A stretch of DNA of 55,758 nucleotides from Minisyncoccota bacterium (GCA_031972295.1 DALYEZ010000001.1:1-55758), one strand, 5' to 3'. Counted from the stretch's first letter, positions 1 to 41,109 are shown. Translations and numbers: made by a program. Notes: generated by a model from the sequence alone, not told the origin.

Positions 1-3
1 TTG

Positions 4-75
4 TGACCCTACGGAGAGTCGAACTCCGGTTGACGGATTGAGAACCCGCTGTCCTAACCACTAGACGATAGGGCC
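4..75 (-). tRNA. tRNA-Glu(CTC)
   Basis: Reverse complement folds as a cloverleaf: acceptor GGCCCTA/TAGGGTC, D-arm CGTCTAGTGGTTAGGAC, anticodon loop TTCTCAA, T-loop GTTCGAC; 3' CCA is not encoded. Confidence 0.95.
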
Positions 76-154
76 GATGTGGATACGCTACAAACTGTAC
101 CTGTTTTGTGTATATTTTTCAATACCTATCTCTATTCTGTGTTAGGATATATGG

Positions 155-1447
155 ATGAAGAAAATAGGTATTGCGTTACTTGGCGTTCTTGTAGCGGGGG
201 CACTCTTTTTTGTGTTTACCTCAAAAACAGGACCAAATGGTCAGCCGATTGAAAATGGTCTTACTGACAAGGACTTGATTACCCTCTATTGGGAGTCAGG
301 AGACGTTTTTTTTACAAACAAGGGGGTACAAGAGGCAAGACTTAATAAAGATTCCTCAAGTGTCATTATTCAGACAGGCAGTCAGGTGCGGACAACTGAA
401 GGATCAGCATACGTGCTTTTCCCCGACAACTCGATGATGTCAATCGATAAAAATACTATCGTAACTATTGAGTACTCAAAAGAGAAAGTTTCTATTCTCC
501 AAACGCTCGGAAACACATACCACCGTGTAAAGACACTCGAATCAGGGCAACAATACGAAGTGCGTACCCCGGGAACGCTCGCTGCTGTGCGTGGTACAAA
601 GTTTGCTGTTTTCTTTGATAACAAAACCAAGAAATCGAATGTAAAAGTAACGGAGAGTAAAGTGAGTGTAAAAAAGCTCGACAGTACCAAACCACTCAAA
701 GATGCTCCTGTGGTGCTTGAAGAAGTTGTTGTTGAAGAAGGCTCACAAGTTGATGTTCCAGATACTTCTATTCAAATCACGCGACCACTTGCGCCAACTC
801 GTATGGGGGAGAAGGACAAACGAGATAGTGGCTGGATGGAGAAGAATGAAATTGTTGACGAAGCAACAGAGAAGCCAGAAAATCGCCGTGAATTTATTGA
901 AAAGATGATTGAGGAGGTGAAGAAACAAAAAGAGGGAATGAATGACAAAGAAAAGATGGATGCGCTCCGTGATCGAGTTAAAAAGTTTAAACAAGAAAAA
1001 GGAATACAAGATGATTCTGTTTCTGAAGAAGACAATTCTAAAGTTCTTGTGGCAAGAAAGACGACTGATGACGCGATTTTAAAACCTCTTCTTGTAGATA
1101 CTAAGCCAGCAGACGACACTCCTTCTTTGAGTGACGACGAAAACCTTCCACCACTTGATCCAAGTATGAGTGATAGTGATGATCCTTTTGTACTCGAGTT
1201 TGATAGACGTTATGAATATTGGTTCCCAATTTACTCAGACAAAGCGACATTATGCTCGCGGGTGAATCCGCTTACCCCAGAAATACTCAAGGCGCGCTTG
1301 ATTGCTTTTGAGACAACCTACAAAGGCACGGTGCCAAATAAAGACGGTATTCTTAATTTTCTTCGAGCATTAAAACTATTCTGTTCTTCAACAGATACAG
1401 ACAATCGAATTCTTGATGAAGGTTACACGGAGAATTACCCTTTCTAA
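155..1447 (+). CDS. Membrane-anchored FecR-domain protein
   Basis: N-terminal TM helix; FecR-like beta domain (TGSQVRT...LFPDNSMMSIDKNT...EVRTPGTLAAVRGTKFAV); charged helical C-terminal half. Confidence 0.8.
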   Translation: MKKIGIALLGVLVAGALFFVFTSKTGPNGQPIENGLTDKDLITLYWESGDVFFTNKGVQEARLNKDSSSVIIQTGSQVRTTEGSAYVLFPDNSMMSIDKNTIVTIEYSKEKVSILQTLGNTYHRVKTLESGQQYEVRTPGTLAAVRGTKFAVFFDNKTKKSNVKVTESKVSVKKLDSTKPLKDAPVVLEEVVVEEGSQVDVPDTSIQITRPLAPTRMGEKDKRDSGWMEKNEIVDEATEKPENRREFIEKMIEEVKKQKEGMNDKEKMDALRDRVKKFKQEKGIQDDSVSEEDNSKVLVARKTTDDAILKPLLVDTKPADDTPSLSDDENLPPLDPSMSDSDDPFVLEFDRRYEYWFPIYSDKATLCSRVNPLTPEILKARLIAFETTYKGTVPNKDGILNFLRALKLFCSSTDTDNRILDEGYTENYPF

Positions 1448-1457
1448 AGCATAGTCT

Positions 1458-3371
1458 GTGAAAAAAAATCTAAACATCACAACGCACAAAACTTTTCTCA
1501 TTGTTTGGATTGTCAGCATCGTTTTTTTTACGTGGGTTCTCCATTGGAATATATTTCAAAACATAAATAATATTTTCTTTGACCCACTTACTACAGGTAC
1601 CGAACGAAAAGATGTGGTTATTGTTGGTATTGATGAAAAAAGCTTGGCGCGTTACGGCGCTTTTCCGTGGGATAGGGATATTTACGCAAACCTCCTTACT
1701 TCACTTGATGGGTACAATCCACGTGTGATTGGTTTTGATATTTTGTTTGCTGAGTCGCGAGCGGGTGATGAAGTGCTTAAAAATATACTTCGTACCATGA
1801 AGACCGATGTCGTTTTTGCAACGAAGGTAGAAGAAGATGCATACATTTCGTCTTTGTATGGTGGTATTTCACCTCGTGTTCATGAAGGAGTGGTGAATGT
1901 TTTTCCTGACAACGATGCTAAGGTGCGCTCAGTCCAAAATTATTTTCTATACAACAAAGAATGTTTACCGTCGTTTTCAAAAAAGATTCTCTCTGTTGCT
2001 ACAAAAATGAGTGAGTATGTGCCAGGGAAGTGTGATACTAAGCAGAAACTTTTCCGGTATCAGGAAAATATTCAAAAAATATCATTTGTTGATGTTGTTG
2101 ATAAAGACATTCCGCTTGAAATGCTTCGAGATAAAATCATTCTTGTTGGATTTGCTACCACTGATCTTGAACAAGATTCATTCTTTGGACTTTTAGGAAG
2201 TAAGATTAATGGAGTTGAAATTCATGCAAGTGCGATTGCGCACAATCTCAATAATGTCCGATTAGTATCTGTTCCAAACTATGTGACACTTTTAGCAAAT
2301 ATTATTTTTGCATTCTTGATAGCTTTCCTTCCTTTTTTCATTAAACGTTTTTCTACACAAATAATTATTCTTGTTCTTGTTGCAGCTGCGACATTCTTTG
2401 GTGCGATTATTGGCTATGAATATGGCTATAAAACGTATGTGCCATGGGCAGTAGGGCTCCCACTTTTTTCGTACGGACTCAGTCTTCTGTATTCCTATGT
2501 GACTAATGTTCGGAAAAATGAATATCTCAAAAAGGTCTTCGGCACGTATGTGCACCCGTCGCTTTTGGAGGAACTTATCAGTGATCCAGCAAAGCTTAAA
2601 CTTGGTGGCGAAAAACGCTATATGACCGTGCTTTTTTCTGACATTCGTGGGTTCACCACTTTCTCGGAAAAACTTTCACCAGAGGGGCTTGTGGACCTTT
2701 TAAATGATTATTTAAACACCATGTCACCGCTTGTTTTGGAACGGCGAGGCACAATCGACAAGTATATTGGGGACGCGATTATGGCATTTTGGAATGCACC
2801 CGTGGCTACAGAAAATCATGAGCTTTTAGCGGTTGAGACAGCACTTGCTATGCAGGAAGCATTAGTTGCATTTAATAAAGAAAAGGCAGATGCAAATGGC
2901 ATGAAGCTTGGCATTGGTATTGGAATCAATAGTGGAGAAATGGTGGTGGGAAATATGGGAAGCGATGCGCGCTTTAATTACACCATTATGGGAGACGCGG
3001 TAAACACAGGCTCTCGTTTCGAAGGGCTGACCAAAAAATATGGCGTTGTAACTATAGTGGGTGAGTCCACGCGAAACGCTATTACGGACGATAAAATTCT
3101 TTTCCGTAAGCTCGATGTGATGACGGTAAAAGGAAAAAGTGAGCCAACAACTATTTATGAGCCGCTTCGAGCAAGTGACTCTATGCGAGAGTTTGTAAAA
3201 AACTATGAGTCTGGTTTTGATGCGTATATCAAAGGTGATTTTGAAACAGCGAAGAAATATTTGGAAACTCTAGCAGCACATGGTGATGAGCCGTCAAAAA
3301 TGCTTCTTGAGCGCATGAAGACCATTGACCTTGCAAGTTGGAAAGGTGTGTGGAAATGGGACGAAAAATAA
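1458..3371 (+). CDS. CHASE2-domain class III adenylate/guanylate cyclase
   Basis: GTG start; TM, CHASE2 motifs (VVIVGIDEKSL, FPWDR, VIGFDILF, GVEIHA), 3 TMs, cyclase core LFSDIRGFT / IDKYIGDAIMAFW / NYTIMGDAVNTGSRFEG. Confidence 0.95.
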   Translation: MKKNLNITTHKTFLIVWIVSIVFFTWVLHWNIFQNINNIFFDPLTTGTERKDVVIVGIDEKSLARYGAFPWDRDIYANLLTSLDGYNPRVIGFDILFAESRAGDEVLKNILRTMKTDVVFATKVEEDAYISSLYGGISPRVHEGVVNVFPDNDAKVRSVQNYFLYNKECLPSFSKKILSVATKMSEYVPGKCDTKQKLFRYQENIQKISFVDVVDKDIPLEMLRDKIILVGFATTDLEQDSFFGLLGSKINGVEIHASAIAHNLNNVRLVSVPNYVTLLANIIFAFLIAFLPFFIKRFSTQIIILVLVAAATFFGAIIGYEYGYKTYVPWAVGLPLFSYGLSLLYSYVTNVRKNEYLKKVFGTYVHPSLLEELISDPAKLKLGGEKRYMTVLFSDIRGFTTFSEKLSPEGLVDLLNDYLNTMSPLVLERRGTIDKYIGDAIMAFWNAPVATENHELLAVETALAMQEALVAFNKEKADANGMKLGIGIGINSGEMVVGNMGSDARFNYTIMGDAVNTGSRFEGLTKKYGVVTIVGESTRNAITDDKILFRKLDVMTVKGKSEPTTIYEPLRASDSMREFVKNYESGFDAYIKGDFETAKKYLETLAAHGDEPSKMLLERMKTIDLASWKGVWKWDEK

Positions 3372-3373
3372 AT

Positions 3374-4114
3374 ATGGCAGATTACAGTGAGTATGCCGTA
3401 GAGTGGCATGAGAATAGAAAGAACAAACGCAGTCATTCAAAAGAATATATAGAAAAGCCAGGAATCTATGAAGCTATTGGAGATGTGCGTGATCAGGATA
3501 TTCTAGTGCTTGGATGTGGCTCAGGGGTTGAGTGTGACGAGCTTGTGCAAAAAGGTGCTCGCAAAGTTCACGGCATAGACAGTGCAAGTGGACTCATTGA
3601 GATAGCACAAAAGGAATACGGAACATGTACTTTTTCTTGTGAGGATATTCGAACATTTAATGTACAAAAAGAAAGTTTTGATATTTGTATTGCAAGTTTG
3701 GTGATGCATTATGTTCCAGACTGGAAAGAAACATTTTCTCGGGTGTGGCAGTCTCTTCGTCCCGGGGGTGTGTTTGTAATGTCACTCAATCATCCTGTGA
3801 AGTTTGGTGCAGAGATTATTCGTGGGGCAGAGTATTCTGCTTTATTGGGTTATGAGAAAGGAAAGGAGGGGGTGAAAGTGTATGGCGACTATTTGAATAA
3901 AAGAAAAATAAAAGATGTGTGGCTCGGCGGACTTGAAGTAGAATTTTATCATCAATCTTTGTCAGATATTCTTAAAGAAGTTTTAGCTTCTCAATTTACT
4001 CTCGTGTCTGTATCTGAGCCAAAGCCAATTGCACGAGCTGAAAAAGAAGATCCGGAGTTTTACCAAATCCACTCTAAAATCCCTCAGTTTTTAGTGATTA
4101 AACTGCAAAAATAA
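3374..4114 (+). CDS. Class I SAM-dependent methyltransferase
   Basis: Motif I VLGCGSG, VHGID, ASLVMHY; start moved to the ATG just after the cyclase stop. Confidence 0.9.
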   Translation: MADYSEYAVEWHENRKNKRSHSKEYIEKPGIYEAIGDVRDQDILVLGCGSGVECDELVQKGARKVHGIDSASGLIEIAQKEYGTCTFSCEDIRTFNVQKESFDICIASLVMHYVPDWKETFSRVWQSLRPGGVFVMSLNHPVKFGAEIIRGAEYSALLGYEKGKEGVKVYGDYLNKRKIKDVWLGGLEVEFYHQSLSDILKEVLASQFTLVSVSEPKPIARAEKEDPEFYQIHSKIPQFLVIKLQK

Positions 4115-4140
4115 AAAGCCACTAATCAAGTGGCTTTTTA
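4112..4140. terminator. Bidirectional intrinsic terminator
   Basis: taaaaagccact-aatca-agtggcttttta inverted repeat between convergent genes. Confidence 0.85.
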
Positions 4141-4155
4141 TTTGTTTTGTATTTT

Positions 4156-4611
4156 TTACTGTACCAATCGGTCAACAACTTTCTTTACATCTCCACCGTC
4201 TGCTTTTCCTGCAAGTTCTTTGATGATCATTCCAGTAAATTTTCCAAGGGCTGTTTTGTCTACTGTTCCTGCTTCGGCAATTTTTGCTTTTACAATAGTT
4301 TCAATTTCAGCTTCAGTCATCGTTGTCGGCAAGAATTGCTCGATGATGGCAAGCTCTGCTTTTTCACTGTCGGCTAAGTCTTCACGTCCACCACTTACAA
4401 ACTGCTCAATAGAATCTTTGCGCTTTTTTTGTTCACGCTTGAGCACATTCATTGCGTCTTCGTCAGAAATAGGCTCCTGAGGAGGAATACCTTTGTTTAC
4501 AAGTTCATTGGTAAATCCAGAACTAATGCCACGAAGCGCCATAAGAGCCACACTGTCCTTTGCAATCATGGCTTCCTTTAACTTTGCTTTTACTGTTTCT
4601 TGAATTGTCAT
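4156..4611 (-). CDS. GatB/YqeY domain protein
   Basis: LKEAMIAKD, KREQKKRKDSIEQF..GGREDLA..EKAELAIIEQFLP, GKADG motifs. Confidence 0.92.
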   Translation of the reverse strand: MTIQETVKAKLKEAMIAKDSVALMALRGISSGFTNELVNKGIPPQEPISDEDAMNVLKREQKKRKDSIEQFVSGGREDLADSEKAELAIIEQFLPTTMTEAEIETIVKAKIAEAGTVDKTALGKFTGMIIKELAGKADGGDVKKVVDRLVQ

Positions 4612-8537: not shown

Positions 8538-9848
8538 CTATAGCAAATCTTGTACGTATTTGGCTACGAGCGCATTAAATGCAAGTCCTCGATCTTGATA
8601 ATCTTTAAACATATCAAAACTTGGTGCGCCCGGAGAGAAAAGAATAGTTTCTCCAGTTTTTGTTTTTTGAATTGCCGCTCGGAACACGTCTTCAAAGTTT
8701 CCTGTAATAACAACGTGTGGAATGTTGTGGAGAGAAAAAAGTTTGGATATACGATCTCGTTCTTCTCCGTATACGATAACGTCTTTAATAAAGAGTGACT
8801 TCTCTATACTTGTAACGAAAGGTTCTAAGTGAAGACCTCTATCTACACCACCAATAAGGAGTGTTGTGGGTGCAATCATGCTTTCAATTGCGACGTCTGT
8901 GGCTGTAGGGTTCGTGGCAAAAGAATCATTTACAAATGTAATGCCATTATGTGTTGCGATCGTCTCGATATGAAAAGGAAGCCCTTTGAATGTTTTAATT
9001 GCTTGTACAATAGATTTTTTATCTACGAGTGCCCACGTTGCTGCAATAGCCGCACAAATATTTTGTTCATTGTGTTTGCCGGGGAGTAAAGCATCCTTTG
9101 CAGCACATATTTCCTCATTGTTGTATGTAAAGAAATCGTTTTCATTTACTTGCACCAACGCATTTGTTCCGTAGGGAATTTTGTTTTTTGCAATACTAAG
9201 CGCGCTAAGCTGTGTGCTTACCTCGTTGTCTTGAAACCATATTGCTGCGTCTTCTTCCTTTTGATATTTAAAAATATTTCCTTTGGATGCTTGATATTGC
9301 TGAATGTCTTTATGCCAGTCGAGATGATCTTCGGTAACTAAAAGACAGATTGCTATCTGTGGGCTTTTGTGAAGATCAAAAAGCTGGAAACTTGAAAGTT
9401 CGTAGACAACAATAGATTGCGGAGTGAGTTTTGGGAGAATAGAAAGTGAGGGTGTGCCAATGTTTCCTACAAGGTGGACGTCTTTGCCATCAGTTTTTAA
9501 AATTTCATAGATAAGAGTTGCTGTTGTTCCTTTTCCCTTAGTGCCCGTGATGCCAATAATGGGGCAGGGACATAATTCAAAAAACTCCTTCGTGACAGTT
9601 GTAACTTTACCTTGGACGATGTCTTCAATGTCCCAGAGTGGTACTCCGGGGGAGCGGACAATGAGATCAAGTGCTGGTGAATCTGCTAAAAGAAGGTCTT
9701 TCCAATTTGATCCGAGTCTTTTGGTACATGTTGTAGGAACTTCAAGTGATTCATTTTGGTCGTACACAGAAATCTCTGCGGCTTGATTACCCCAGTATTC
9801 GAGTGCCATTTTGCCTTCTCGTCCAAATCCAACAATTCCTATTCGCAT
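8538..9848 (-). CDS. murD: UDP-MurNAc-L-Ala:glutamate ligase (MurD, probably L-Glu-using MurD2 type)
   Basis: GFGREG N-terminus, RSPGVP, GITGTKGKGTT, ELSSFQL, DHLDWH, VNDSFATNP, SPGAPSFDMF; start overlaps the murL stop. Confidence 0.93.
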   Translation of the reverse strand: MRIGIVGFGREGKMALEYWGNQAAEISVYDQNESLEVPTTCTKRLGSNWKDLLLADSPALDLIVRSPGVPLWDIEDIVQGKVTTVTKEFFELCPCPIIGITGTKGKGTTATLIYEILKTDGKDVHLVGNIGTPSLSILPKLTPQSIVVYELSSFQLFDLHKSPQIAICLLVTEDHLDWHKDIQQYQASKGNIFKYQKEEDAAIWFQDNEVSTQLSALSIAKNKIPYGTNALVQVNENDFFTYNNEEICAAKDALLPGKHNEQNICAAIAATWALVDKKSIVQAIKTFKGLPFHIETIATHNGITFVNDSFATNPTATDVAIESMIAPTTLLIGGVDRGLHLEPFVTSIEKSLFIKDVIVYGEERDRISKLFSLHNIPHVVITGNFEDVFRAAIQKTKTGETILFSPGAPSFDMFKDYQDRGLAFNALVAKYVQDLL

Positions 9849-11158
9849 GTTTCTATAATAGCGCGTAACGGAGTATTTATCTCTTCAGGGATAAAGTTGG
9901 GGTGGTAATTGGTAAGGAAGCTATCCGCAAGTTTCGCTTCATTTTCTACAGTAATCCAGTCCTCAACCGAAAGACTTTTCCCAAGCAGTGAATTTTTAAA
10001 GTCATCACTTTGAATCGCGGCGCGACACATTTCAGCTCTTGTTGCTACGCAGTCGAAAGGTTTTACAGGTGAAAGCCCTAGAAGCTCTTTGAGAAGCGGT
10101 GTGAGGCTTTCATTTTGATGCAAATCACTTCCAAATATTTCCATTCTCTTTTCAAGAGGAAGTGAAACTGACAAAAGCATATTTGTACCAAGACATTTTG
10201 CACACACACCACACCATCTTTTTGCACCACTTTCTTCAATGGTGAAGTTTTTATTGCAGCTACTAAAAGCTGGGAATACGTGAGGGCACATTTTTGCAAA
10301 TAAGTTTGTCACTCGAAGTCCACCCAGTGGCCGTAGAATAGAAAAGTATGTAATTTCTTGAGAAATGGTTTGGCGTACAAAATCTTGAACCTTTTTTTCA
10401 AAGTCACTCGTTTTTGACCACTGATGGTTCACGGGTCTGCCGAGCCATTCTGTGTTGGACTCATCAGCACTTGTTTCGTTTGCTACAACGACATACTTAC
10501 TTTGCTCGTGCTCTGCAAGCACAACTCCTGTGAAAGCGTAGATAAGAGAAATAGGAACATGTCCAAGAAAAACATTTTCTTTGAGTGTCAGTAGTTGCGG
10601 GTCTGTTTTGCGGACGACTTCAAGAAGAGGAATATTAAGTGCTTGAGTATTTTCAATGAGCAACGGAATGGATCGAACTTTTGTAGCAAAACCTGTCACA
10701 GGAACATTTATTCTTTTGAGAAGTTCTACTGCAAGCGAAGAATCTTTACCGCCACCGATTCCAACAATAGCTTTTAGTTCGTAGGAAGATGTTGTCTCAT
10801 GTGGCGGTGTACTGACTGTTTCTTCGTAAGTTATTTGTATCTGGTCGACAACACTCCACTCGAGCTTGTTTTGGTACACAAGTTCAGAAAAGCCGTTTCT
10901 AAAAAGCCACTGCCAAAATTCTTTCTCACTATCATCAATTAACCACCCTATGTGTATCTCTGGTGCAAGGTGGAGTTTGAAATAACTAATAGACGTGGCA
11001 ATAGCAAGGGCTCGGAGCGCTTTAGAATCGGAAATCTCAAAAGGAAAGATATGTTCTTCTTGAAATGAAAAAGAAGTAGCTCCGTCGGTATAGGAATAGG
11101 TATAGATTGCTGTGTTTGCAACAACCTTCGGGAGGTGAATAGTGAAGATTTTATCCAT
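9839..11158 (-). CDS. murL: UDP-MurNAc-L-Ala-L-Glu epimerase MurL
   Basis: GIGGGKDS, GHVP, ANETSA, VNHQWSK, YFSILRPL, FSSCNKNF, RWCGVCAKC, KPFDCV match the MurL motif series in order; start set at MDKIF, 7 nt after TGG-CATAAT. Confidence 0.88.
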   Translation of the reverse strand: MDKIFTIHLPKVVANTAIYTYSYTDGATSFSFQEEHIFPFEISDSKALRALAIATSISYFKLHLAPEIHIGWLIDDSEKEFWQWLFRNGFSELVYQNKLEWSVVDQIQITYEETVSTPPHETTSSYELKAIVGIGGGKDSSLAVELLKRINVPVTGFATKVRSIPLLIENTQALNIPLLEVVRKTDPQLLTLKENVFLGHVPISLIYAFTGVVLAEHEQSKYVVVANETSADESNTEWLGRPVNHQWSKTSDFEKKVQDFVRQTISQEITYFSILRPLGGLRVTNLFAKMCPHVFPAFSSCNKNFTIEESGAKRWCGVCAKCLGTNMLLSVSLPLEKRMEIFGSDLHQNESLTPLLKELLGLSPVKPFDCVATRAEMCRAAIQSDDFKNSLLGKSLSVEDWITVENEAKLADSFLTNYHPNFIPEEINTPLRAIIETCE

Positions 11159-11187
11159 TTCTTTCATTATGCCATGTGAACAAGAAA

Positions 11188-11215
11188 TTGACATTCTTAA
11201 TGTGGGGAGTAAATT
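11188..11215 (+). promoter_or_regulatory. Sigma70-type promoter (TTGACA-N16-TAAATT), divergent from murL
   Basis: Perfect -35 at 11188-11193, TAAATT at 11210-11215. Confidence 0.55.
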
Positions 11216-11255
11216 GAAAGGGTGACATTCCGTCACAAGCACTCGGGAGAGTGTC

Positions 11256-11375
11256 ATGGTCAACGAGATCAAGAAAACGGACTGGGTGGAAGGTGCCGTC
11301 ATCGCCGGAATCGCAGGGGTCGCCGGACGATGGGTCAAGCACAAGTGCGGTAGTTTGGTTCAGATGAAATTCTGA
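11256..11375 (+). CDS. Candidate 39-aa small protein MVNEIKKTDWVEGAVIAGIAGVAGRWVKHKCGSLVQMKF (or ORF within a structured RNA)
   Basis: SD-like GGGAGAG upstream of ATG, 27 of 38 post-start codons end in G/C with purine-rich first positions, upstream promoter and downstream terminator; below the ORF-track cutoff. Confidence 0.55.
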   Translation: MVNEIKKTDWVEGAVIAGIAGVAGRWVKHKCGSLVQMKF

Positions 11376-17381: not shown

Positions 17382-18545
17382 ATGGCAACCTTTGATCCTT
17401 TTGACAAGAAATCTGCAAGCGCACAAGCTACGCGTGATAGAGAAGTTGCTGAGCGAGCACGTAAAATGCAGGCAGAGGCAGAAGCGCGTCGTAAGAAACA
17501 ACTTCTTCAAACTGATATCGCTAAAATCCAGCAAGGGATAGCTCGACTGAAACAAGAAGAAACTACTCTTGTTCAAGACACCGAACGTGGCACACGACTT
17601 CTTGAACAAAAGAAAAGGGAAGTGATGGAGGCGACGCGTGATTTGCAGGTCATTGACCGCAAGGTTGCTGAAGAGGGTAAAAAGGTAACACTTATTTCTC
17701 AGATACTCGACTCAATCAGAACAAAACTACAGAGCCTACGAACACAATTAAGTGGTCTTACTGCTAAAGAAAAACAAGAGGAAGGCTCCACTCAAAACAA
17801 AAAGATACTTCTTGCAAATGCGACACAAAAAAGAGAAGCCCTCACACTCGAGTTCGGGCGACTTGATGCTCTCGTAAAAAAAATAAAAACTGATGTTGAT
17901 ACGGAAAAGAAAGAGCTTGTTCAAAAACAGACAAATCTTGCAAAAAGGAAACATGAACGGGATGGTGTCGAGACGTCTATACAAAATACCAAACAGAGAA
18001 TTCACGATCTCGAACACGAACTCCAACTTCTTCGTGTGACTCTTTCCAAAGAAGAACAAGAAAAGACGCAAATTGATAGCAGTCATGTGCAGGAGGATAA
18101 AGAGGTGCAGATGCTACTTCAGGCGACTCAAGGTAAAGATGCGGAACTGTATCGTCTTAATCAAGAACATGAAAGAGTACGTCGAGAACTTGATCAGGAA
18201 AAAGATGTTATGGAGCGGACACGGGCTGCATTTACACAAGATGAGGGTATTGAAAAACGAGATGAGGCCGGTTTAAATAAGGCACACCAAGAAGAAGTCG
18301 CTCTTTTGAATGATGAAAAAAGGAGACGTGATGAAGCAGGTGTTGTCCAGGCTCAGTATGATAATGATTTACGTGCAAAGAAACTTCTTGAAACAAAAAA
18401 GATGGAAGCCCTTGCGCATATTTCTACTGAATCCACAGTGCTTCAACAGAGACAACAGCGTAAACGAAACGTGGAAAACGAAATCAAAAAGTTTGAAACA
18501 GAGTTACAGCAAAAGGAGAGGGAACTGCAAGGGATTCGATTTTAG
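17382..18545 (+). CDS. Hypothetical long coiled-coil protein
   Basis: 387-aa ORF rich in E/K/Q/R/L, almost no Pro or aromatic residues after the N-terminus, no TM. Confidence 0.8.
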   Translation: MATFDPFDKKSASAQATRDREVAERARKMQAEAEARRKKQLLQTDIAKIQQGIARLKQEETTLVQDTERGTRLLEQKKREVMEATRDLQVIDRKVAEEGKKVTLISQILDSIRTKLQSLRTQLSGLTAKEKQEEGSTQNKKILLANATQKREALTLEFGRLDALVKKIKTDVDTEKKELVQKQTNLAKRKHERDGVETSIQNTKQRIHDLEHELQLLRVTLSKEEQEKTQIDSSHVQEDKEVQMLLQATQGKDAELYRLNQEHERVRRELDQEKDVMERTRAAFTQDEGIEKRDEAGLNKAHQEEVALLNDEKRRRDEAGVVQAQYDNDLRAKKLLETKKMEALAHISTESTVLQQRQQRKRNVENEIKKFETELQQKERELQGIRF

Positions 18546-22025: not shown

Positions 22026-22029
22026 ATAT

Positions 22030-22851
22030 ATGCTCGACGTACTTAAAAAAATAGCTCTTCTTGCAATAGGATTTCTTGTTATTGCACTGTTTGCATGGCT
22101 CGTTTTCCCTTCATCTCAAAAAGCTGCTGACAGTATTGCTGAAAACAATGTTACTAAAAAAAGAACACTCGGGGAAATTATCGTGCGTGATTTCTTAGGT
22201 ATTCCTAAGTGCGGTCTTTTGGGTGGTGGCTGTAGCGATCGGTTTTCAGATGGGCAAGCAACCTCTACTTCAAACGCACGTTTCTCAAATAAAGACATTC
22301 GACTTGTTGAGCCAACATCAGGGAGTAGTGTGAGAAGTGGTTTGCAAATAGAAGGCCTGGCTCGAGGAACGTGGTTTTCTCAAGGTATAGCTTCTGGAGA
22401 GGTTCGGAATGAGCGAGAAGAGAAGATAGGTGCGTTTACTATTCGTGCTAACGGGGCAACAAACTCAACTGCGTTCGTGTCTTTTTTAGGAACTATTACC
22501 TATGGTGATCCTGCGACAAAAACTGGCTATCTTGTTTTTAACAAAGCAAATCCTACGGGAGATGCGAAAAAAAATAGTGTTTTGTGGGTGCCTGTACGTT
22601 TTGAGGAAACGAGTTCTGGTTCTGGAATCCTTACTCCTCCTGGACAGAGAGAGTGTAAAAAAACAGGATGTAGCGGACAGATTTGTTCTGATGTAGATGT
22701 TATGACAACGTGTGAATATCGAGCTGAATACACCTGTTTCCAGGCAGCTCGTTGTGAACGACAAATAAGCGGGGAGTGTGGTTTTACACAAACTACAGAG
22801 TTGCAGTCTTGTCTTTCTTCTGCACGAAATAATTCTAGTAGTGGTATTTAA
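22030..22851 (+). CDS. Membrane-anchored Gmad2 Ig-like protein with C-terminal eight-cysteine-cluster domain
   Basis: TM; I.LVEP..GSSV.S.L.I.G.ARGTWF...NPTG Ig-like domain; CKKTGCSGQIC..TTCE..C..C..C..C cluster. Confidence 0.75.
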   Translation: MLDVLKKIALLAIGFLVIALFAWLVFPSSQKAADSIAENNVTKKRTLGEIIVRDFLGIPKCGLLGGGCSDRFSDGQATSTSNARFSNKDIRLVEPTSGSSVRSGLQIEGLARGTWFSQGIASGEVRNEREEKIGAFTIRANGATNSTAFVSFLGTITYGDPATKTGYLVFNKANPTGDAKKNSVLWVPVRFEETSSGSGILTPPGQRECKKTGCSGQICSDVDVMTTCEYRAEYTCFQAARCERQISGECGFTQTTELQSCLSSARNNSSSGI

Positions 22852-24717: not shown

Positions 24718-25323
24718 ATGAAAACGCTTCTTATTGGAATTGTTGTTATTGCATTAGGTTTTTTCGCACTTGTTTGGTTTAAGGGCGCACCTCAAGACAC
24801 CACTAATGGCGTGATTGGTGAATATAGTCCGTTTACAAAGGGGCCGAGTACAGCAAAAGTAAAAATTACAGAATATGCTGATTTTCAATGTCCATCATGT
24901 GCTGCAATGGCACCAACGGTTGAGGATCTTCTTGCAAAGTATCCAAATGACATTGAACTTACATTCAAACATTTTCCTCTCACACAAATTCATCGACGGG
25001 CACTTTTAGCCGCAAAAGTAAGTGAAGCGGCTGGAAAGCAAGGTAAATTTTTTGAAATGCATGACAAACTCTTTATCGGACAGTCAATGTGGGCATCAAA
25101 CTCAAAAGCTGACGAAATTTTTGTAGGATACGCGACAGAGCTTGGTCTTGATATTGAACAGTTTAAAACAGATCTTAAAGATGCAACAATTGCAGCAAAA
25201 ATTAAATCAGATCAAGCAGAAGGAATAAAAAATGACGTACAAGGAACTCCAACGTTTTTCGTAAATGGTTTGAAAGTTGAAAATGGTCTTTTTGTAACAA
25301 CCGTTGAGGCGGCACTTAAATAA
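24718..25323 (+). CDS. DsbA-family thiol:disulfide oxidoreductase, membrane anchored
   Basis: EYADFQCPSC, FKHFPL, GTPTFFVNG. Confidence 0.93.
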   Translation: MKTLLIGIVVIALGFFALVWFKGAPQDTTNGVIGEYSPFTKGPSTAKVKITEYADFQCPSCAAMAPTVEDLLAKYPNDIELTFKHFPLTQIHRRALLAAKVSEAAGKQGKFFEMHDKLFIGQSMWASNSKADEIFVGYATELGLDIEQFKTDLKDATIAAKIKSDQAEGIKNDVQGTPTFFVNGLKVENGLFVTTVEAALK

Positions 25324-27859: not shown

Positions 27860-30800
27860 ATGGCACGCGTTCAAAAAACCGCAACAAAAACGGTAACTAA
27901 AAAGGCATCGAGTATTCCTGCTACATATGATCCTAAAAAAATAGAACCCATTCTTCAAAAAAAATGGGAAAAAGAAAAACCATTTAAAGCGCTTGCAAGT
28001 GGTAAGACAAAAAAGAAACCTTTTTATGTGCTATCAATGATTCCGTATCCATCAGGAATAGGACTCCATATAGGTCATCCGCGAAGCTACACTGCAACAG
28101 ACATTGTGGCACGTAAAAAAAGAATGGAAGGATTTAATGTCTTAAATCCAATGGGCTACGATGCATTCGGACTGCCTGCCGAGCAATTTGCAATACAGAA
28201 CCAAGTGCACCCCAAGAAAGCTGTCGCAATAAATGTTAAAACTTTTGAAGGACAGCTCAAAAGACTAGGATTTTCTTTCGATTGGGATAGAAAAATAAAC
28301 ACAACAGACCCTGGGTATTACAAATGGACGCAATGGATATTCTTGAAGCTTTACAATTCGTATTACGATACAAATAAAAAGAAAGCACTTTCTATTGATG
28401 AGCTTGTAAAGATTTTTGAGAAAAAAGGAAATCAAAGTATTAATGCTTTTATATCTGATCAAGTTTCTAACTTTACTAAAGATGATTGGAAGAAAATGTC
28501 TCCGTTGCAAAAGCAAGAGGTATTAATGAAGTACCGTCTTGCGTATGAGGGCGTTGCTCAAGTCAATTGGTGTGAAGCACTTGGGACTGTGCTTGCTAAC
28601 GATGAGGTTGTTGATAGTAAAGAGGGGCCTGTATCAGAGCGTGGCGGGTACCCAGTAACAAAGAAGAATGTTCGGCAGTGGTTTTTGCGAATCACTGCGT
28701 ATGCTGACCGACTTTTGTCTGGCTTAGATACGATTGCTTGGCCAAACCACATAAAGGAAATAGAAAAAAATTGGATTGGGAAAAGTGAGGGGGCTGAAAT
28801 ACTATTTAATCTTAATGTACCAGGTCAAGCTGAGGGTAAACATTCAGTAACTGTGTTTACTACTCGACCGGACACACTTTTGGGCGTAACATTTCTTGCG
28901 GTTTCAGCGGAGCTTGCACAAACGTGGCTTAATGTTGGCTGGCAGACAACTGGAGATGTTAAGGAGTATATAGAAAATGTTATTAAGGATCATGAAAAGA
29001 GTGATTTTGATGCATCGAAAGAAAAAACAGGAATTTTTACCCAGATATTTGCCACACATCCCGGAACACAAGAGAAGATTCCTGTTTGGATTGCGAATTA
29101 TGTTCTTCCTGGATATGGTACAGGCGCAATAATGGGAGTGCCAGCACACGATGAACGAGATTATGAATTTGCTCAAACGTATAATCTTCCTATCAAGAAT
29201 GTTATCGACCCAATTTTTGTTCGTGCTGACGTAAAAGATGCTACAAACTTTACTCCAAAAAATAAAATTGTCGCTCTTGTTGAAGCTCCTGACGGCAAGG
29301 TATTAACCATAAACTGGGGCTCAGCACTTGGTGGGCGGCTTCTTGTTGGTGGGACAATCGAAAATGGTGAACAGCCAGGTGAGACAGCATTACGTGAACT
29401 ACAAGAAGAAACAGGTTATTGTAATGGACAGGTTATTTCTGTTGGTGAAGAAATATTTGATTACAAATACTTTGCAACTTCTAAAAATACAGCACACCAA
29501 GCCTTTACTCGTTTCGTACATATAAAACTTAAAGATCTTGAAAATAAAGGTGATGCGCTTGAAGATAATGAGAAAGGTAAATTCAAAGTTGAGTGGATAC
29601 CGAAAGAGCAAGCCAAAAAAGAAATTGTTGAGGTGTTGCATGTATATGCTTTGGAGAAGTTTGGATATAATCTACCGTTTTCTGGCGAAGGTATTGTTGC
29701 TCGATCAGGCGTATTTTCTGGACTCACTTCCGTCCAGGCAAAAAAAGAAATTACAAAATCAGTTGGAGGTAAACTCGTCACTCGATACAAAATGCGTGAT
29801 GCTATTTTTGCTCGACAGCGCTACTGGGGTGAGCCGGTGCCACTCTTTAAAGACAAGGAAGGAATTATTCATGAAGTAAAAAAACTTCCTCTCGCGCTTC
29901 CAAATACAACCTCATATGAACCAACAGGAACCGGCGAAGGTCCGCTCGCAAATATTACCTCTTGGAAAAAAGCTGGCTATGAAACAAACACTATGCCAGG
30001 TTGGGCGGGATCAAGTTGGTATTATTTACGGTATATGGATGCACAAAACAAAAAAGTTTTTGCAGATCCAAAAGAAATAAAATATTGGAACCAAGTAAAT
30101 GTGTATCTAGGTGGAGCGGAGCACGCGACAGGCCACCTTTTGTATGCTCGTTTTTGGCACAAGGTTTTAAAGGATTATGGATTAGTGCCAACAGAAGAAC
30201 CTTTTAAGCAGTTTGTTGCGCATGGTTTGATTCTGGCCTCAGATGGACGAAAAATAAGTAAACGTTGGGGGAATGGAATAAGCCCGGATGAAGTTGTTGC
30301 AACATATGGGGCAGACACCACTCGTCTTTATATTGCCTTCATGGGTCCGTACACTGAATCTATTCCGTGGTCAGACGAAAGTATTATTGGTTGTCGGCGC
30401 TTCATTGAGCGTTTGTATAAGAAAGCCCAGTCTGCTCTAAATGAAAAAGTTTCAACGAGTGATGCTGTTGCCGAAAAAGCAATTCATAAACTTATCGATA
30501 AAGTAACAAAAGATATTGAAAGTTATAGCTTCAATACTGCTGTTGCTAAGGCTATGGAAACAATGAATATAATTGATAGTTGTAAAGTCTCAGTAAAAGA
30601 TTTTTCACTCATGCTTCAAGTGCTTAATCCATTTATTCCACATGTGACAGAATACTTATTCAAAGAGTGTGGCAACAAGGAGGGAATACACACAAGCTCT
30701 TGGCCAAAAGCGAACAAAAAGCTTCTTATTGACGATGAAATTACCATCGGCGTTCAAGTAAATGGAAAACTTCGAGGAACCATCACCGTACCCACTAATT

Positions 30801-30928
30801 CTCTCGAAAATGTAGTCAAAAAGGCTGCCCTAAATGAAGATAATGTGTTAAAATATTTGGAGGGAAAAGAGGTGATAAAGGTGGTTTATGTGCCAAATCG
30901 CATTATAAACATCGTTATTAAGCCATGA
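27860..30928 (+). CDS. leuS: Leucine--tRNA ligase with inserted Nudix hydrolase domain
   Basis: PYPSG.GLHIGH, CP1 FTTRPDT / GTGAIMGVPAHDERD, RQRYWG, GGAEHA, KISKR, QVNGKLR; Nudix box at 29351-29416. Confidence 0.96.
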   Translation: MARVQKTATKTVTKKASSIPATYDPKKIEPILQKKWEKEKPFKALASGKTKKKPFYVLSMIPYPSGIGLHIGHPRSYTATDIVARKKRMEGFNVLNPMGYDAFGLPAEQFAIQNQVHPKKAVAINVKTFEGQLKRLGFSFDWDRKINTTDPGYYKWTQWIFLKLYNSYYDTNKKKALSIDELVKIFEKKGNQSINAFISDQVSNFTKDDWKKMSPLQKQEVLMKYRLAYEGVAQVNWCEALGTVLANDEVVDSKEGPVSERGGYPVTKKNVRQWFLRITAYADRLLSGLDTIAWPNHIKEIEKNWIGKSEGAEILFNLNVPGQAEGKHSVTVFTTRPDTLLGVTFLAVSAELAQTWLNVGWQTTGDVKEYIENVIKDHEKSDFDASKEKTGIFTQIFATHPGTQEKIPVWIANYVLPGYGTGAIMGVPAHDERDYEFAQTYNLPIKNVIDPIFVRADVKDATNFTPKNKIVALVEAPDGKVLTINWGSALGGRLLVGGTIENGEQPGETALRELQEETGYCNGQVISVGEEIFDYKYFATSKNTAHQAFTRFVHIKLKDLENKGDALEDNEKGKFKVEWIPKEQAKKEIVEVLHVYALEKFGYNLPFSGEGIVARSGVFSGLTSVQAKKEITKSVGGKLVTRYKMRDAIFARQRYWGEPVPLFKDKEGIIHEVKKLPLALPNTTSYEPTGTGEGPLANITSWKKAGYETNTMPGWAGSSWYYLRYMDAQNKKVFADPKEIKYWNQVNVYLGGAEHATGHLLYARFWHKVLKDYGLVPTEEPFKQFVAHGLILASDGRKISKRWGNGISPDEVVATYGADTTRLYIAFMGPYTESIPWSDESIIGCRRFIERLYKKAQSALNEKVSTSDAVAEKAIHKLIDKVTKDIESYSFNTAVAKAMETMNIIDSCKVSVKDFSLMLQVLNPFIPHVTEYLFKECGNKEGIHTSSWPKANKKLLIDDEITIGVQVNGKLRGTITVPTNSLENVVKKAALNEDNVLKYLEGKEVIKVVYVPNRIINIVIKP

Positions 30929-32045: not shown

Positions 32046-33410
32046 ATGAATTACCTCGGGGCAATCATTACGCTATTATTTTTTATTGCACTTTCTGCAG
32101 GACTCGGCATACTCTGGTGGCGACACTGGGTACGACACGTGCAGGCTCAATTCCTAAACTCTATAAAATGGATTTTACTTGAAGTACGTTTACCTCGAGA
32201 TCTTTTTAAGTCACCTCTTGCTATGGAAATGTTTCTCACTTCTTTGCATCAAGGGGGTGGAACAAGTACATGGTATGCAAAATTTTGGGATGGAAAAGTT
32301 CGTAATTGGTTTTCATTAGAAATTGCTTCATTGGAAGGGGATGTGCGTTTCTTTATTCGTACCAATGGTAAGTTTAAAAATGCAATTGAGTCTGCGCTGT
32401 ATGCACAGTATCCAGGAATAGAAATAACAGAAACTGAAGACTACACAAACTATCTTCGTTACGATCCAAAAGAACACGATGTTTGGGGAAACGATTTTGC
32501 CCTAGTAGGTGAAGACGCTATTCCAATACGTACTTACGTAGACTATAAGCTCGACAAAGACCCTAAAGAAGAATTTAAAGTTGACCCAATAGCGCCCCTT
32601 ATTGAATGGATGGGTTCAGTGAAAAAAGGTGAGCAGATCTGGTTTCAGATTATTTGTCGTGCGGTTGATGGAAAGTTTGATACTTGGAAACTAGATGCAC
32701 AAAAAGCGCTGAACAAGATTTATTACGGACTTGAGCTTACAAATGATGAAGTAAAAGAAAAAATAAAAGAAGCGAAGGCTGAACTCGCAGAAGCTCGAAA
32801 AACAGATGATAAGGCTCGGGGGAATGTTCCAGAAGCAAAAAAAGATTCAGATCTCTCATATACAGATAAGCAAAAAGTTGAAGCGATTTATAACAATATT
32901 TCTAAACCTGGCTTCGAGGTGATGATTCGTGTTGCGTATATTGCAGATAAGAAACATTTTGATCCAAGAAATATTGATGCAGCAACAGGGTGTTTACGTC
33001 AATTTGGACATGGAAACTTCAATGGTTTTAGACCAGAAAATACAACGAGCTTCGATTTCCCTTGGGAAGATAGTACGGGAATTAAGTTAATTGGTAAAAA
33101 AGACGAAGCTGTCGCTAAAATTCAAAAACGAAAAGGCTTCTACAAGGCTCATAGCAATGAAGATTGGTATAACGGAATTCCGAGCGGTATACTTCATGAT
33201 GTTTGGGAGGCTTTTAAAATTCGGTTTTTCTCAGTTGATCCGATAAAGGCGTTTAAAAAACCATCTGTAAAAGATGACCCAACTCGTTTTATATTAAATA
33301 CGGAAGAGCTCGCAACGGTATACCATTTCCCTGGACAAGTCTCAGCTGCGCCGTCGCTCAAACGTATTGGATCTACAAAGGCAGAACCACCTATTAATTT
33401 ACCACTCTAA
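32046..33410 (+). CDS. Conserved hypothetical membrane-anchored protein
   Basis: N-terminal TM; WFSLEIAS, ESALYAQYPGIEI, FILNTEELATVYHFP; own TGn-TATAAT box. Confidence 0.75.
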   Translation: MNYLGAIITLLFFIALSAGLGILWWRHWVRHVQAQFLNSIKWILLEVRLPRDLFKSPLAMEMFLTSLHQGGGTSTWYAKFWDGKVRNWFSLEIASLEGDVRFFIRTNGKFKNAIESALYAQYPGIEITETEDYTNYLRYDPKEHDVWGNDFALVGEDAIPIRTYVDYKLDKDPKEEFKVDPIAPLIEWMGSVKKGEQIWFQIICRAVDGKFDTWKLDAQKALNKIYYGLELTNDEVKEKIKEAKAELAEARKTDDKARGNVPEAKKDSDLSYTDKQKVEAIYNNISKPGFEVMIRVAYIADKKHFDPRNIDAATGCLRQFGHGNFNGFRPENTTSFDFPWEDSTGIKLIGKKDEAVAKIQKRKGFYKAHSNEDWYNGIPSGILHDVWEAFKIRFFSVDPIKAFKKPSVKDDPTRFILNTEELATVYHFPGQVSAAPSLKRIGSTKAEPPINLPL

Positions 33411-38808: not shown

Positions 38809-38861
38809 CTTATTCTCGCTAAAAAGTTTTGTAATTCTGTTTGTAGGGTATACTTATCTAC

Positions 38862-39857
38862 ATGAAGGGTCGTGCGCCGCTTTTAAAAGAAAGTTACTCT
38901 CTTGTGCTTGATATCTATCTTGGTGGTGTTAGTGGTGCAATAGTGAGGAATGGTGTTATTGAACATCTGTCTCATAATAAAGCGCCCATTACTTTAGAAA
39001 ATGAACCGCAGAAGCTGCTTGCGCAAACGGAGATACTTCTTTTCAGAACTCTTGACGAGCTTGCCTCTAAAAAGAAAATTGTACAAACGTGCATTTTTAT
39101 CGATGCGCCCTTATCGTATTCTGAAACACATGAAGTTTTGTTTCAGAATGAAGACGCAACGTTTTTTGAACAAAATACAAAAGAGATAGAGGGTACACTT
39201 GATTTACCGAGCATATATACTGAACTTCTTGGGCCACATACTTCTGATGGGATTATTCTTGAACATTCACCACAAAATCACACCCTAAATGGTTATTCTA
39301 GTTCAAATCTTTCTCTATCAGGCGAAAGAAAGGCTGATATTGTTCAACAGTGGATACAAAGAAATGTATATACTGCGCTTCAAAAAGCAAAACAGTCCTA
39401 CATTCTAGGTAAAGACATCTTTTTACCAAATCTTATTGTAGGGAAAACTAATACTGATGTTTTGATGCTGGGTGAAATAGTGAGTGTGTATTATCACAAG
39501 AACATGAGTGCTGTTTTAAATACAGGTACGGGAATTGTAATATCAAAATGTGCACAAACACAGAGTCAATCTTTTTTACAAGTAGAAAGCATGCTCAAAA
39601 GTATTGAACGTACTCATGGAACAAAGAATGCTTTATACAAAGAAGTTGTAAAAGATTTTTCACACGCGTTCTCACATAGTTTTACAAAAGATATCCAGTC
39701 AAATAATGTCCCTTGTCCAACAGTATATGTAGGAGATTCTTTTATGCTTCCCGTTGTGGAAGATGCTTTGGCATCAGAAAAAAACATAGATTTTGTGGAA
39801 ATATACAAAGGTGGAGACGCACGTCTCACATATATTATTAAAAGTAAGGTACAATAA
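38862..39857 (+). CDS. Hypothetical protein, possibly degenerate FtsA/PilM-like actin fold
   Basis: LVLDIYLGGV resembles phosphate-1; LNTGTGIVISKCA...FLQVESML resembles the FtsA/PilM subdomain; weak. Confidence 0.5.
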   Translation: MKGRAPLLKESYSLVLDIYLGGVSGAIVRNGVIEHLSHNKAPITLENEPQKLLAQTEILLFRTLDELASKKKIVQTCIFIDAPLSYSETHEVLFQNEDATFFEQNTKEIEGTLDLPSIYTELLGPHTSDGIILEHSPQNHTLNGYSSSNLSLSGERKADIVQQWIQRNVYTALQKAKQSYILGKDIFLPNLIVGKTNTDVLMLGEIVSVYYHKNMSAVLNTGTGIVISKCAQTQSQSFLQVESMLKSIERTHGTKNALYKEVVKDFSHAFSHSFTKDIQSNNVPCPTVYVGDSFMLPVVEDALASEKNIDFVEIYKGGDARLTYIIKSKVQ

Positions 39858-39870
39858 TTACAAATATTGT

Positions 39871-41109
39871 ATGCAAGACATCGTTCCTAAAAAAAGCATT
39901 CGAGAAATTACTAAACCACATGTACCAGGAAGTGTGGCGCCACGAAACACATACCAGAAAGTTCCTGATGTGGTTACGGTTGCTAAAGATAGCGCAACTC
40001 AGTTTGATGAATATCCGCACACAAAAACTGAATTTTATACGAAAGAAAAGAAACGTGGATGGATACTTCCGGTATTTATTGTTGCGGTACTCATTTCTGT
40101 TGGTGGATTTCTTCATTTTCAAAAAAGCGCTACGGTATACGTAACCAGTAAGCAAGAAATTTTCACATTTAAGGATACTGATATTGTGATACCTACTAGT
40201 AGCTTAGAGATACTATCAATAAGTACATCAACTACTATTGATATAAAAACAAGTACTGGAACACCAGCCCTTATGAAAGCAAAAGGTACAGTGACCCTCT
40301 ACAACTCAAATTCTACCGAGCAACTCCTTGTTGCTGGCACACGACTTGAGACTCCAAATGGAAAAATATACCGTCTCGATGGACGCATTACTGTACCTAA
40401 GATGATAAATAGCAGTACCCCAGGATCAATTCAAGCTCTTGTAACAGCAGATAAGCCAGGTGAAAGCTATAATGTGTCCCAAGCAGACTTTACGCTTCCT
40501 GGGCTTGTCGGGACTGCTCGTTATAAAACAGTCTATGCTCGAACCAAGGGTGCAATTGCAGGTGGCTCAGAAACAGCAGTGCGTTTGATAGATGAAAAAG
40601 ATAAAAATCAAAAAATGGAAACATTTTTAACAGAAAACAGAGTGTCTCTTGAGGCAAAACTTCGCCTTCAAAAGAAAGCTTCTACAACTATCATTCAAGA
40701 ACCACTCACAACGAGTAGTTTTGAAAAGATTTCGGATACACAAGGACTCGTTACCCTTACTACTTCAATGCATCTTTTGGATACCAAAGAATTTGCCACC
40801 CTCCTCACAAAAAACCAAAAACAAAACACAGTTATCACAATGGATTTTGCCCAGGATTCAACAGGTATGATTGTTACATACGTATCGGAAGATAAAGAAG
40901 GAGTTCGTGTGAAAGTAAGCGGTGTAGCTTCGGTGCGCCCATATGTGAATATGGAAGATATCAAAAACGCTCTTGCAGGTACTTCAATGAAGCAGTTTCG
41001 AGAACACATTAAAGATGTACAAGGAATACAGGAGATACGATTTACTTCAAGACCTTTCTGGGTGAGCACATTTCCTTCAGCTTCTCGTATTTTTGTAGAA
41101 CAAAAATAA
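39871..41109 (+). CDS. Membrane-anchored baseplate J/gp47-like domain protein
   Basis: Disordered N-terminus, single TM, then AKGTVTLYN..LVAGTRLET.NG.IYRL..VTADKPGESYN..FTLPG..IAGG. Confidence 0.7.
   Translation: MQDIVPKKSIREITKPHVPGSVAPRNTYQKVPDVVTVAKDSATQFDEYPHTKTEFYTKEKKRGWILPVFIVAVLISVGGFLHFQKSATVYVTSKQEIFTFKDTDIVIPTSSLEILSISTSTTIDIKTSTGTPALMKAKGTVTLYNSNSTEQLLVAGTRLETPNGKIYRLDGRITVPKMINSSTPGSIQALVTADKPGESYNVSQADFTLPGLVGTARYKTVYARTKGAIAGGSETAVRLIDEKDKNQKMETFLTENRVSLEAKLRLQKKASTTIIQEPLTTSSFEKISDTQGLVTLTTSMHLLDTKEFATLLTKNQKQNTVITMDFAQDSTGMIVTYVSEDKEGVRVKVSGVASVRPYVNMEDIKNALAGTSMKQFREHIKDVQGIQEIRFTSRPFWVSTFPSASRIFVEQK

Follow-up and report, generated by a model that had tools for sequence, protein, structure and literature searches.

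A conserved gene pair for a membrane-anchored FecR-like protein and a CHASE2 adenylyl cyclase in Minisyncoccota, a probable extracytoplasmic sensing module

The DNA analyzed here is a stretch of 55,758 nucleotides (nt) from Minisyncoccota bacterium (GCA_031972295.1, DALYEZ010000001.1:1-55758), hereafter called the window, and the study concerns three codirectional genes at its beginning. These encode, in this order, a FecR-like membrane-anchored protein, a class III adenylyl cyclase with a CHASE2 sensor domain and a methyltransferase (Table 1). The first two of them probably constitute a two-protein extracytoplasmic sensing module that controls the synthesis of cyclic AMP (cAMP). A preliminary description of this DNA had pictured the three genes as a tightly packed unit closed by a terminator, and this layout was borne out by the open reading frames (ORFs), which are separated by gaps of exactly 10 nt and 2 nt. 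Judged from the sequence, the operon-like unit is real. It is bounded upstream by a divergent tRNA gene, and no consensus sigma-70 promoter was called by a promoter scan of the plus strand of the intergenic region that separates this gene from the unit. The cyclase gene has a GTG start codon that is kept in relatives, and the methyltransferase was taken to start at the ATG at position 3374, which is conserved in relatives, rather than at the TTG at position 3338 with which the longer, mechanically called ORF begins. Since the next gene, YqeY (4156-4611), is located on the opposite strand, the hairpin that follows the methyltransferase gene closes the three-gene unit. The neighbors of the gene pair in the window are tRNA-Glu, the methyltransferase, YqeY and RmuC.

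We compared the gene order around the FecR-like gene across related genomes. In total, 24 loci were fetched, of which one ends at the FecR gene and two (L008 and L014) represent second paralogs, leaving 21 informative loci. In all 21 Patescibacteria loci, the FecR gene is situated directly upstream of a CHASE2 cyclase gene, with a gap of -32 to +33 nt, and the pairing holds at FecR identities down to about 30% and with differing flanking genes. A check from the cyclase side gave the same result: a FecR gene was located upstream of the cyclase in each of the five closest loci for which upstream sequence was available. The homologs and loci are named as Minisyncoccia/Paceibacteria, Nomurabacteria, Gracilibacteria, Parcubacteria, Dojkabacteria and unclassified Patescibacteria, and the closest locus, with 89% protein identity, belongs to a metagenome-assembled genome of Paceibacteria, which is the class Minisyncoccia. 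That the DNA comes from a cell of the candidate phyla radiation (CPR), as had been suggested, is supported: these named relatives belong to Patescibacteria groups, and the rest of the window consists of housekeeping genes typical of a small genome. A literature search retrieved no paper linking CHASE2 with Patescibacteria, and nothing relevant on adenylate cyclase or cAMP in the CPR.

The preliminary description had also raised the question of whether the pair and the methyltransferase are syntenic across Patescibacteria; this is so for the two genes of the pair, but not for the methyltransferase. The latter is of the generic class I type that depends on S-adenosylmethionine (SAM), with Pfam matches to Methyltransf_11/25 (E-value of about 1e-17), and the structures closest to it are uncharacterized methyltransferases from structural genomics. 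It was found after the cyclase only in the clade to which the window itself belongs (the window along with L001, L002, L003, L017, L018 and L021), whereas the more distant pairs lack it and are followed instead by a convergent gene for an alternative oxidase. The conserved module thus consists of two genes, not three, and the methyltransferase, rejected as a member because its linkage is limited to one clade, is predicted to be a clade-specific co-transcribed passenger.

The convergent gene was seen in nine loci (L004, L005, L007, L009, L010, L011, L013, L015 and L016) as an ORF of about 230 amino acids (aa) directly after the cyclase gene, with ORFs of similar sizes beyond it. The product was identified by Pfam as an alternative oxidase (AOX; PF01786, E-value of 2e-71) in L011 (10300-10989, minus strand), where it is followed by SerRS, an unknown gene and Dus, and the identity of the gene in the other eight loci was inferred from ORF size and position. 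An AOX is unexpected in the largely fermentative CPR bacteria. On the other side of the pair, the FecR gene of one Paceibacteria relative is immediately preceded by a gene (L002, 4605-6695) for a protein of 696 aa, in which a cytochrome b5-like domain is combined with a cytochrome d1 haem domain of the nitrite-reductase type. A FecR and CHASE2-cyclase pair was also observed on three contigs binned as Woesearchaeota, which are DPANN archaea (L029, L030 and L032; cyclase identity of 34-35%). These represent either a horizontal transfer between ultra-small lineages or mis-binning, and the neighboring genes (deoxynucleoside kinase, macro domain and SBF) fail to decide between the two.

In the cyclase, Pfam identified both the CHASE2 domain (PF05226, E-value of 4.7e-41) and the Guanylate_cyc domain (PF00211, E-value of 2.5e-24). 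Two transmembrane (TM) helices after CHASE2 were predicted by hydropathy (residues ~274-296 and ~300-320), while a third (~325-345) was recognized by eye and falls below the hydropathy threshold. With three TM helices after CHASE2, the catalytic domain would face the cytoplasm and the sensor domain the exterior. Among solved structures, those most closely related to the catalytic domain are CyaB from Pseudomonas aeruginosa (3r5g, E-value of 1e-34) and Cya2 from Synechocystis (2w01/6fht, E-value of 6e-32). The membrane module of CyaB is MASE2, and Cya2 is a guanylyl cyclase. The residues on which an active class IIIb adenylyl cyclase depends, and which had been pointed out in the preliminary description, were all located in the alignment to these two proteins. 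The two metal-binding aspartates are D395 (in FSDIRGF) and D439 (in IGDAIM), which align with the aspartates of 3r5g and 2w01. The lysine of IDKY is K435, at the purine-specifying position that is occupied by Lys in CyaB and by Glu in Cya2. The threonine at the second specificity site is T509, aligned with the Thr of CyaB that replaces the canonical Asp and is a signature of class IIIb, and the transition-state pair is N516 and R520. Five of these residues (D395, K435, D439, N516 and R520) are invariant across 11 aligned diverse cyclases, and T509 is kept in at least 90%. The metal, Lys/Thr and Asn/Arg residues thus match those of CyaB, but the sensor in the window protein is a CHASE2 domain with a FecR partner. 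The cyclase is therefore a predicted active, homodimeric class IIIb adenylyl cyclase with CHASE2 outside and the catalytic domain inside the cell; as a member of this class, it may respond to bicarbonate as well. The cyclase ends in a tail of about 70 aa (…GDFETAKKYLETLA…), which hardly varies at several of its positions among the 11 aligned cyclases and across phyla, and which may be a regulatory or dimerization element.

The FecR-like protein was modeled with AlphaFold2 (AF2) from an alignment of 112 homologs, which gave a mean predicted local distance difference test (pLDDT) score of 85.8. Hydropathy and the AF2 model both indicate a single hydrophobic helix at the N-terminus, and neither Pfam nor the model revealed a TPR or a beta-barrel, so that the earlier picture of a TM-anchored partner devoid of these elements was retained. 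Neither a lipobox nor a twin-arginine motif was found in the protein. The anchor is followed by a domain with a match to FecR (PF04773, residues 78-170, E-value of 2.6e-11), for which Foldseek recovered BDI_1681 (4m0n) and the periplasmic domain of PupR (6ovk) with E-values of about 1e-6. Beyond this beta-domain there is a helical stalk and a disordered linker, the length of which varies among the aligned homologs; in the AF2 model, the disorder covers residues ~292-328. The complete architecture is shown by 118 database homologs and recurs in the 24 fetched loci, and the features of the unit go far beyond what chance would produce.

Among the known systems close to this one are the anti-sigma regulators FecR, PupR and FoxR of cell-surface signaling, with which the FecR-like protein shares the fold of the FecR beta-domain, a Gly-Thr dipeptide at the self-cleavage position and the topology, in which the membrane is spanned once and the FecR domain is external. 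Unlike these regulators, it has no DUF4880, no FecR_C/STN-like domain and no twin-arginine motif. Only about three cytoplasmic residues precede the TM helix, and an anti-sigma domain is therefore lacking. With this short cytoplasmic part and with DUF4880 and FecR_C both missing, the protein is not an anti-sigma factor; both domains were recovered from E. coli FecR in an identical Pfam scan. Neither an extracytoplasmic function (ECF) sigma factor nor a TonB-dependent transducer was found among the neighbors of the FecR-like gene.

The distal part of the protein had been described as an uncharacterized C-terminal helical domain with two cysteines, and this proved accurate: the domain contains exactly two (C367 and C410), of which C410 is invariant and C367 is kept in at least 90% of the 112 homologs. 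Its five helices span residues 344-426 in the AF2 model. A separate AF2 model of residues 205-430, with a pLDDT of 80.7, produced no fold match in the PDB better than an E-value of 2.9 with Foldseek, and a family profile of the non-FecR half gave no sequence match in the PDB at E-values of 1 or less. When residues 335-430 were compared exhaustively with 1.84 billion representatives by phmmer, six matches were obtained, four of which are family members or fragments and two of which are spurious repetitive proteins (P0121 and P0122). The domain is thus confined to its own protein family, within which the distal part takes several forms. A Dojkabacteria homolog contains four tandem copies of the two-Cys helical module, and L031 has DUF5667 and an immunoglobulin-like Big_2 domain beyond its FecR domain. 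In the second paralog of L008 (79-1386), a beta-rich domain that carries a Cys-rich tail (…QCGACDSL…CRQA(L/I)GCR) takes the place of the module, and the paralog of L014 (6953-8299) was inferred to be of the same type. Such variation between homologs is as expected for an exchangeable antenna on a constant docking domain.

Conserved cysteines were also observed in the extracytoplasmic part of the cyclase, where C169 and C192 of CHASE2 are invariant in 17 Patescibacteria pairs. The window additionally codes for a membrane-anchored DsbA-like thioredoxin (Thioredoxin_4/DSBA; 24718-25323, plus strand), which suggests that this small genome is able to form extracytoplasmic disulfides. Given the two conserved cysteine pairs and the DsbA-like gene, disulfides in the ectodomains of both the FecR-like protein and the cyclase are plausible.

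Table 1. Positions in the window of the three-gene unit, of the domains and motifs encoded by it and of its flanking features.
Feature	Position	Strand	Basis and remarks
tRNA-Glu(CUC)	3..75	-	ARAGORN, Rfam; divergent, upstream boundary of the unit
5' intergenic/leader region	76..154	+	Sequence; AGGA Shine-Dalgarno at 144-147, 7 nt ahead of the ATG
Gene for FecR-like membrane-anchored co-sensor, 430 aa	155..1447	+	ORF, Pfam, homologs, AF2, Foldseek
N-terminal signal-anchor helix, aa 2-22	158..220	+	Hydropathy, AF2
FecR beta-domain, aa 42-202, predicted extracytoplasmic	278..760	+	Pfam, AF2 (pLDDT >90), Foldseek
Gly147-Thr148, invariant, within RGT motif	593..598	+	Family alignment, pairwise alignment to E. 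coli FecR
Helical stalk, aa 219-282, confidently modeled	809..1000	+	AF2; homologous region in L031 scores as DUF5667
Disordered linker, aa 283-343, low-complexity, acidic, Pro-rich	1001..1183	+	pLDDT <50
Distal five-helix domain with C367/C410 and C-terminal YPF motif	1184..1444	+	AF2, alignment, Foldseek, phmmer
Gene for CHASE2 receptor class IIIb adenylyl cyclase (predicted), 637 aa	1458..3371	+	ORF, Pfam, residue alignment
CHASE2 extracytoplasmic sensor domain, aa 23-289, preceded by TM1 (aa 13-33)	1524..2324	+	Pfam, hydropathy
Membrane segment after CHASE2, aa ~274-345	2277..2492	+	Hydropathy
Class III cyclase catalytic domain, aa 388-565	2619..3152	+	Pfam, alignment to solved relatives
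Conserved C-terminal helical tail of cyclase, aa 566-637	3153..3368	+	Alignment; no Pfam match
Gene for class I SAM-dependent methyltransferase, 246 aa	3374..4114	+	ORF, Pfam, synteny
Intrinsic terminator hairpin	4109..4143 (core 4117-4140)	.	15-bp stem and T-run; shared with the convergent YqeY

The pairing of FecR with CHASE2 is already known and does not represent a new kind of system. In the plant-signal cAMP pathway of Sinorhizobium meliloti, NsrA is required for signaling through the CHASE2 cyclases CyaK and CyaD1/D2, as demonstrated by genetic evidence (PMC7529298, PMC13001267). The likeness to this precedent, which had been named in the preliminary description, could be confirmed at the sequence level: on pSymB, an ORF of 1219 aa with a FecR domain (residues 85-179) and TPR repeats is located immediately upstream of, and in the same direction as, a gene for a CHASE2 class III cyclase of 649 aa, and its stop codon overlaps the start of the cyclase gene. 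The pSymB record is unannotated, and the gene names NsrA and CyaK were assigned to these ORFs by inference. The cyclases of the window and of pSymB are 32% identical over 87% of the length, and the RGT motif is part of the alignment between the two FecR domains. The partners differ in that the rhizobial protein is 1219 aa long, with TPR repeats and, as described in the literature (PMC7529298, PMC13001267), a beta-barrel in the outer membrane, whereas the window protein has 430 aa, a cytoplasmic-membrane anchor, a helical stalk, a linker and the two-Cys helical domain. A partner that is anchored in the cytoplasmic membrane and has neither barrel nor TPR fits a cell without an outer membrane.

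Two other known arrangements are comparable. In Campylobacterota, the gene cluster of a CHASE2 cyclase also includes a FecR protein of the outer membrane, a TPR protein and a cAMP phosphodiesterase (PMC9239204); the cyclase and the FecR-domain protein are shared with the pair in the window, where neither the TPR protein nor the phosphodiesterase was found. In the 'BiofilmReg' operon of Burkholderia, a LysM-FecR protein of the P. aeruginosa PA4035 type is encoded 10 bp upstream of a CHASE2 histidine kinase (PMC5192318). Here, too, the CHASE2 receptor gene is directly preceded by the gene for an extracytoplasmic FecR protein that has a further domain directed at the wall or surface, but the output consists of a histidine kinase and a response regulator instead of a cyclase, and the accessory domain is an N-terminal LysM rather than a C-terminal two-Cys helical domain. 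More broadly, a FecR-domain ORF was identified within 5 kb in at least 30 of 80 CHASE2 cyclase loci from other phyla with an iterated hidden Markov model (HMM). This is a lower bound; the first FecR HMM, which was built from Patescibacteria only, missed proteobacterial FecR domains and recovered 12 loci before iteration gave 30. What is new in the Patescibacteria pair is the membrane-anchored, barrel-less architecture, the differing distal "antenna" domains and the retained Gly-Thr at the FecR self-cleavage site.

The proposed module would function as follows. The FecR-like protein would be tethered by its N-terminal anchor in the same membrane as the cyclase, with the remainder of the protein outside the cell. 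In order from the membrane, this part would consist of the FecR beta-domain, the helical stalk, a flexible spacer of about 60 residues and the distal domain, which is probably disulfide-bonded. By analogy with the Fec and Pup systems, in which FecR domains dock on partner signaling domains, the FecR beta-domain may dock on CHASE2, while the distal domain would be an exchangeable antenna, extending into the cell wall or across it to pick up a cue. A change at the interface between FecR and CHASE2 would then alter the packing of CHASE2 and the TM helices, and thereby the activity of the cyclase dimer and the level of cAMP. This change may be driven by the dissociation or proteolysis of a fragment that arises by self-cleavage at G147/T148. 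Host or contact sensing by an episymbiont, as put forward in the preliminary description, is a possible role for such a module.

Several observations weigh against this interpretation. No protein with a cyclic nucleotide monophosphate (cNMP)-binding domain and no cAMP phosphodiesterase was found in the 55.8-kb window or in the fetched flanks, in a search that used phmmer with sequences of E. coli CRP and of the cyclic nucleotide-binding (CNB) domain of the protein kinase A regulatory subunit (PKA-R) against the ORFs of the window and the loci, and Pfam on most, although not all, larger window ORFs. In S. meliloti, the effector of NsrA-CyaK is the Crp-like protein Clr, of which no counterpart was identified in the window. 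Our home-made HMM recovered no FecR ORF in the 5-kb surroundings of most CHASE2 cyclase genes outside the Patescibacteria, and the pairing is therefore frequent rather than obligatory. The second FecR paralogs in L008 and L014 are situated away from any cyclase, on contigs that also carry a normal pair, and the neighbor of the L008 paralog is a convergent CTP synthase; since these orphans are not adjacent to a cyclase, FecR-like proteins may also act independently. Finally, among FecR domains at large, no motif is more conserved than Gly-Thr.

The last point bears on how a signal might be transmitted from the antenna. One possibility would be a proteolytic cascade of the FecR style, in which the protein cleaves itself at G147/T148, the C-terminal fragment with the antenna stays bound until it is released or degraded in response to a cue, and the remaining stub then switches the cyclase on or off. 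We consider such a cascade possible but on balance unlikely; it is a more specific form of the model outlined above and does not contradict it. The residues R146, G147 and T148 are invariant across the 112 homologs, and G147/T148 align pairwise with G181/T182 of E. coli FecR, for which self-cleavage at this site has been mapped experimentally (PMC12036975). An alignment of FecR domains from 31 ORFs that neighbor CHASE2 genes and nine seed sequences contained Gly-Thr in 38 of its 40 rows. Although this suggests that the FecR-like protein may cleave itself at G147/T148, the conservation of the motif across FecR domains in general means that its presence is no proof of cleavage, and its role may be purely structural. 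Moreover, both folding and cleavage of E. coli FecR take place in the cytoplasm, and its export depends on the twin-arginine translocation (Tat) pathway (PMC12036975), whereas the window protein, without a twin-arginine motif, is presumably inserted unfolded, and no gene for a site-1 or site-2 protease is linked to the pair.

It is also conceivable that the two proteins are mere neighbors, with CHASE2 sensing on its own and the FecR-like protein belonging to a surface or adhesin type comparable to the FecR-domain lipoproteins LipL45, Lsa33 and Lsa19 of Leptospira, to all of which it has weak NCBIfam matches. The orphan paralogs and the many CHASE2 cyclases of other phyla without a nearby FecR ORF would be accounted for in this way, but not the near-zero spacing in all of the informative loci, even where the flanking genes differ, nor the recurrence of the pairing in unrelated phyla, and the genetic data from S. 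meliloti favor a functional link. This invariant linkage weakens the explanation to the point where we regard it as very unlikely. An origin in anti-phage defense, with the cyclase as part of a Pycsar-type cyclic-nucleotide system or making a product other than cAMP, was rejected as extremely improbable: the catalytic domain does match the PADLOC models of PycC (best E-value of 2.6e-31), and the methyltransferase the 'mad2' model, but the former match is expected, given that class III cyclases and PycC have their fold in common. No adjacent gene codes for an effector that combines a cNMP-binding domain with a TIR or TM domain, the specificity residues are Lys and Thr, the purine-type residues also present in the adenylyl cyclase CyaB, the gene is located among housekeeping genes and vertically conserved across the phylum, and the CHASE2 membrane receptor is unlike PycC.

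We thus retain the sensing module of FecR-like protein and CHASE2 cyclase as the probable interpretation. A bolder version of it, according to which a minimal, outer-membrane-free form of FecR-CHASE2 signaling is used throughout the phylum, with a self-cleaving protein and exchangeable antennae that convert surface cues, maybe including contact with the host cells on which these episymbionts live, into a cAMP signal for a receptor unlike Crp, seems unlikely in its entirety.

Some features elsewhere in the window are also worth recording. The leucyl-tRNA synthetase (27860-30928, plus strand; 1022 aa) contains a NUDIX hydrolase domain at residues 471-587 (E-value of 5.5e-12), which separates the editing domain from the second half of the catalytic core; such a fusion or insertion is unusual. 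No long ORF is present in two stretches of ~1 kb (38809-39792) and ~0.75 kb (22026-22777), which also gave no Rfam match even at E-values up to 0.1 and may represent degraded genes, RNAs that are not annotated or genes for small proteins. Four ORFs of 387-501 aa had no Pfam match (9839-11344 on the minus strand, and 17382-18545, 32046-33410 and 39793-41109 on the plus strand), the first of which lies within a slightly GC-richer segment at 10-12 kb (0.43, as compared to ~0.39-0.40).

According to the Pfam text quoted in PMC5192318, it is not known what CHASE2 binds and how it is activated. With a 430-aa single-span protein and a 637-aa cyclase in one membrane, the pair in the window is the smallest version seen in the present analysis. 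To our knowledge, NsrA-CyaK is the only FecR-CHASE2 pair that has been studied genetically, and its large outer-membrane partner is hard to handle. Because the Patescibacteria pair is small, confined to a single membrane and conserved across many lineages, it is practical for complex prediction, reconstitution and cryo-electron microscopy, and a useful minimal model for the control of CHASE2. For the Patescibacteria, the pair would mark a conserved environmental sensor and source of a second messenger in genomes with very few signaling genes. If minimal signaling of this kind is indeed used across the phylum, it would be one of a small number of dedicated sensory pathways in such reduced genomes, and would provide the simplest available system in which to study how CHASE2 is controlled.

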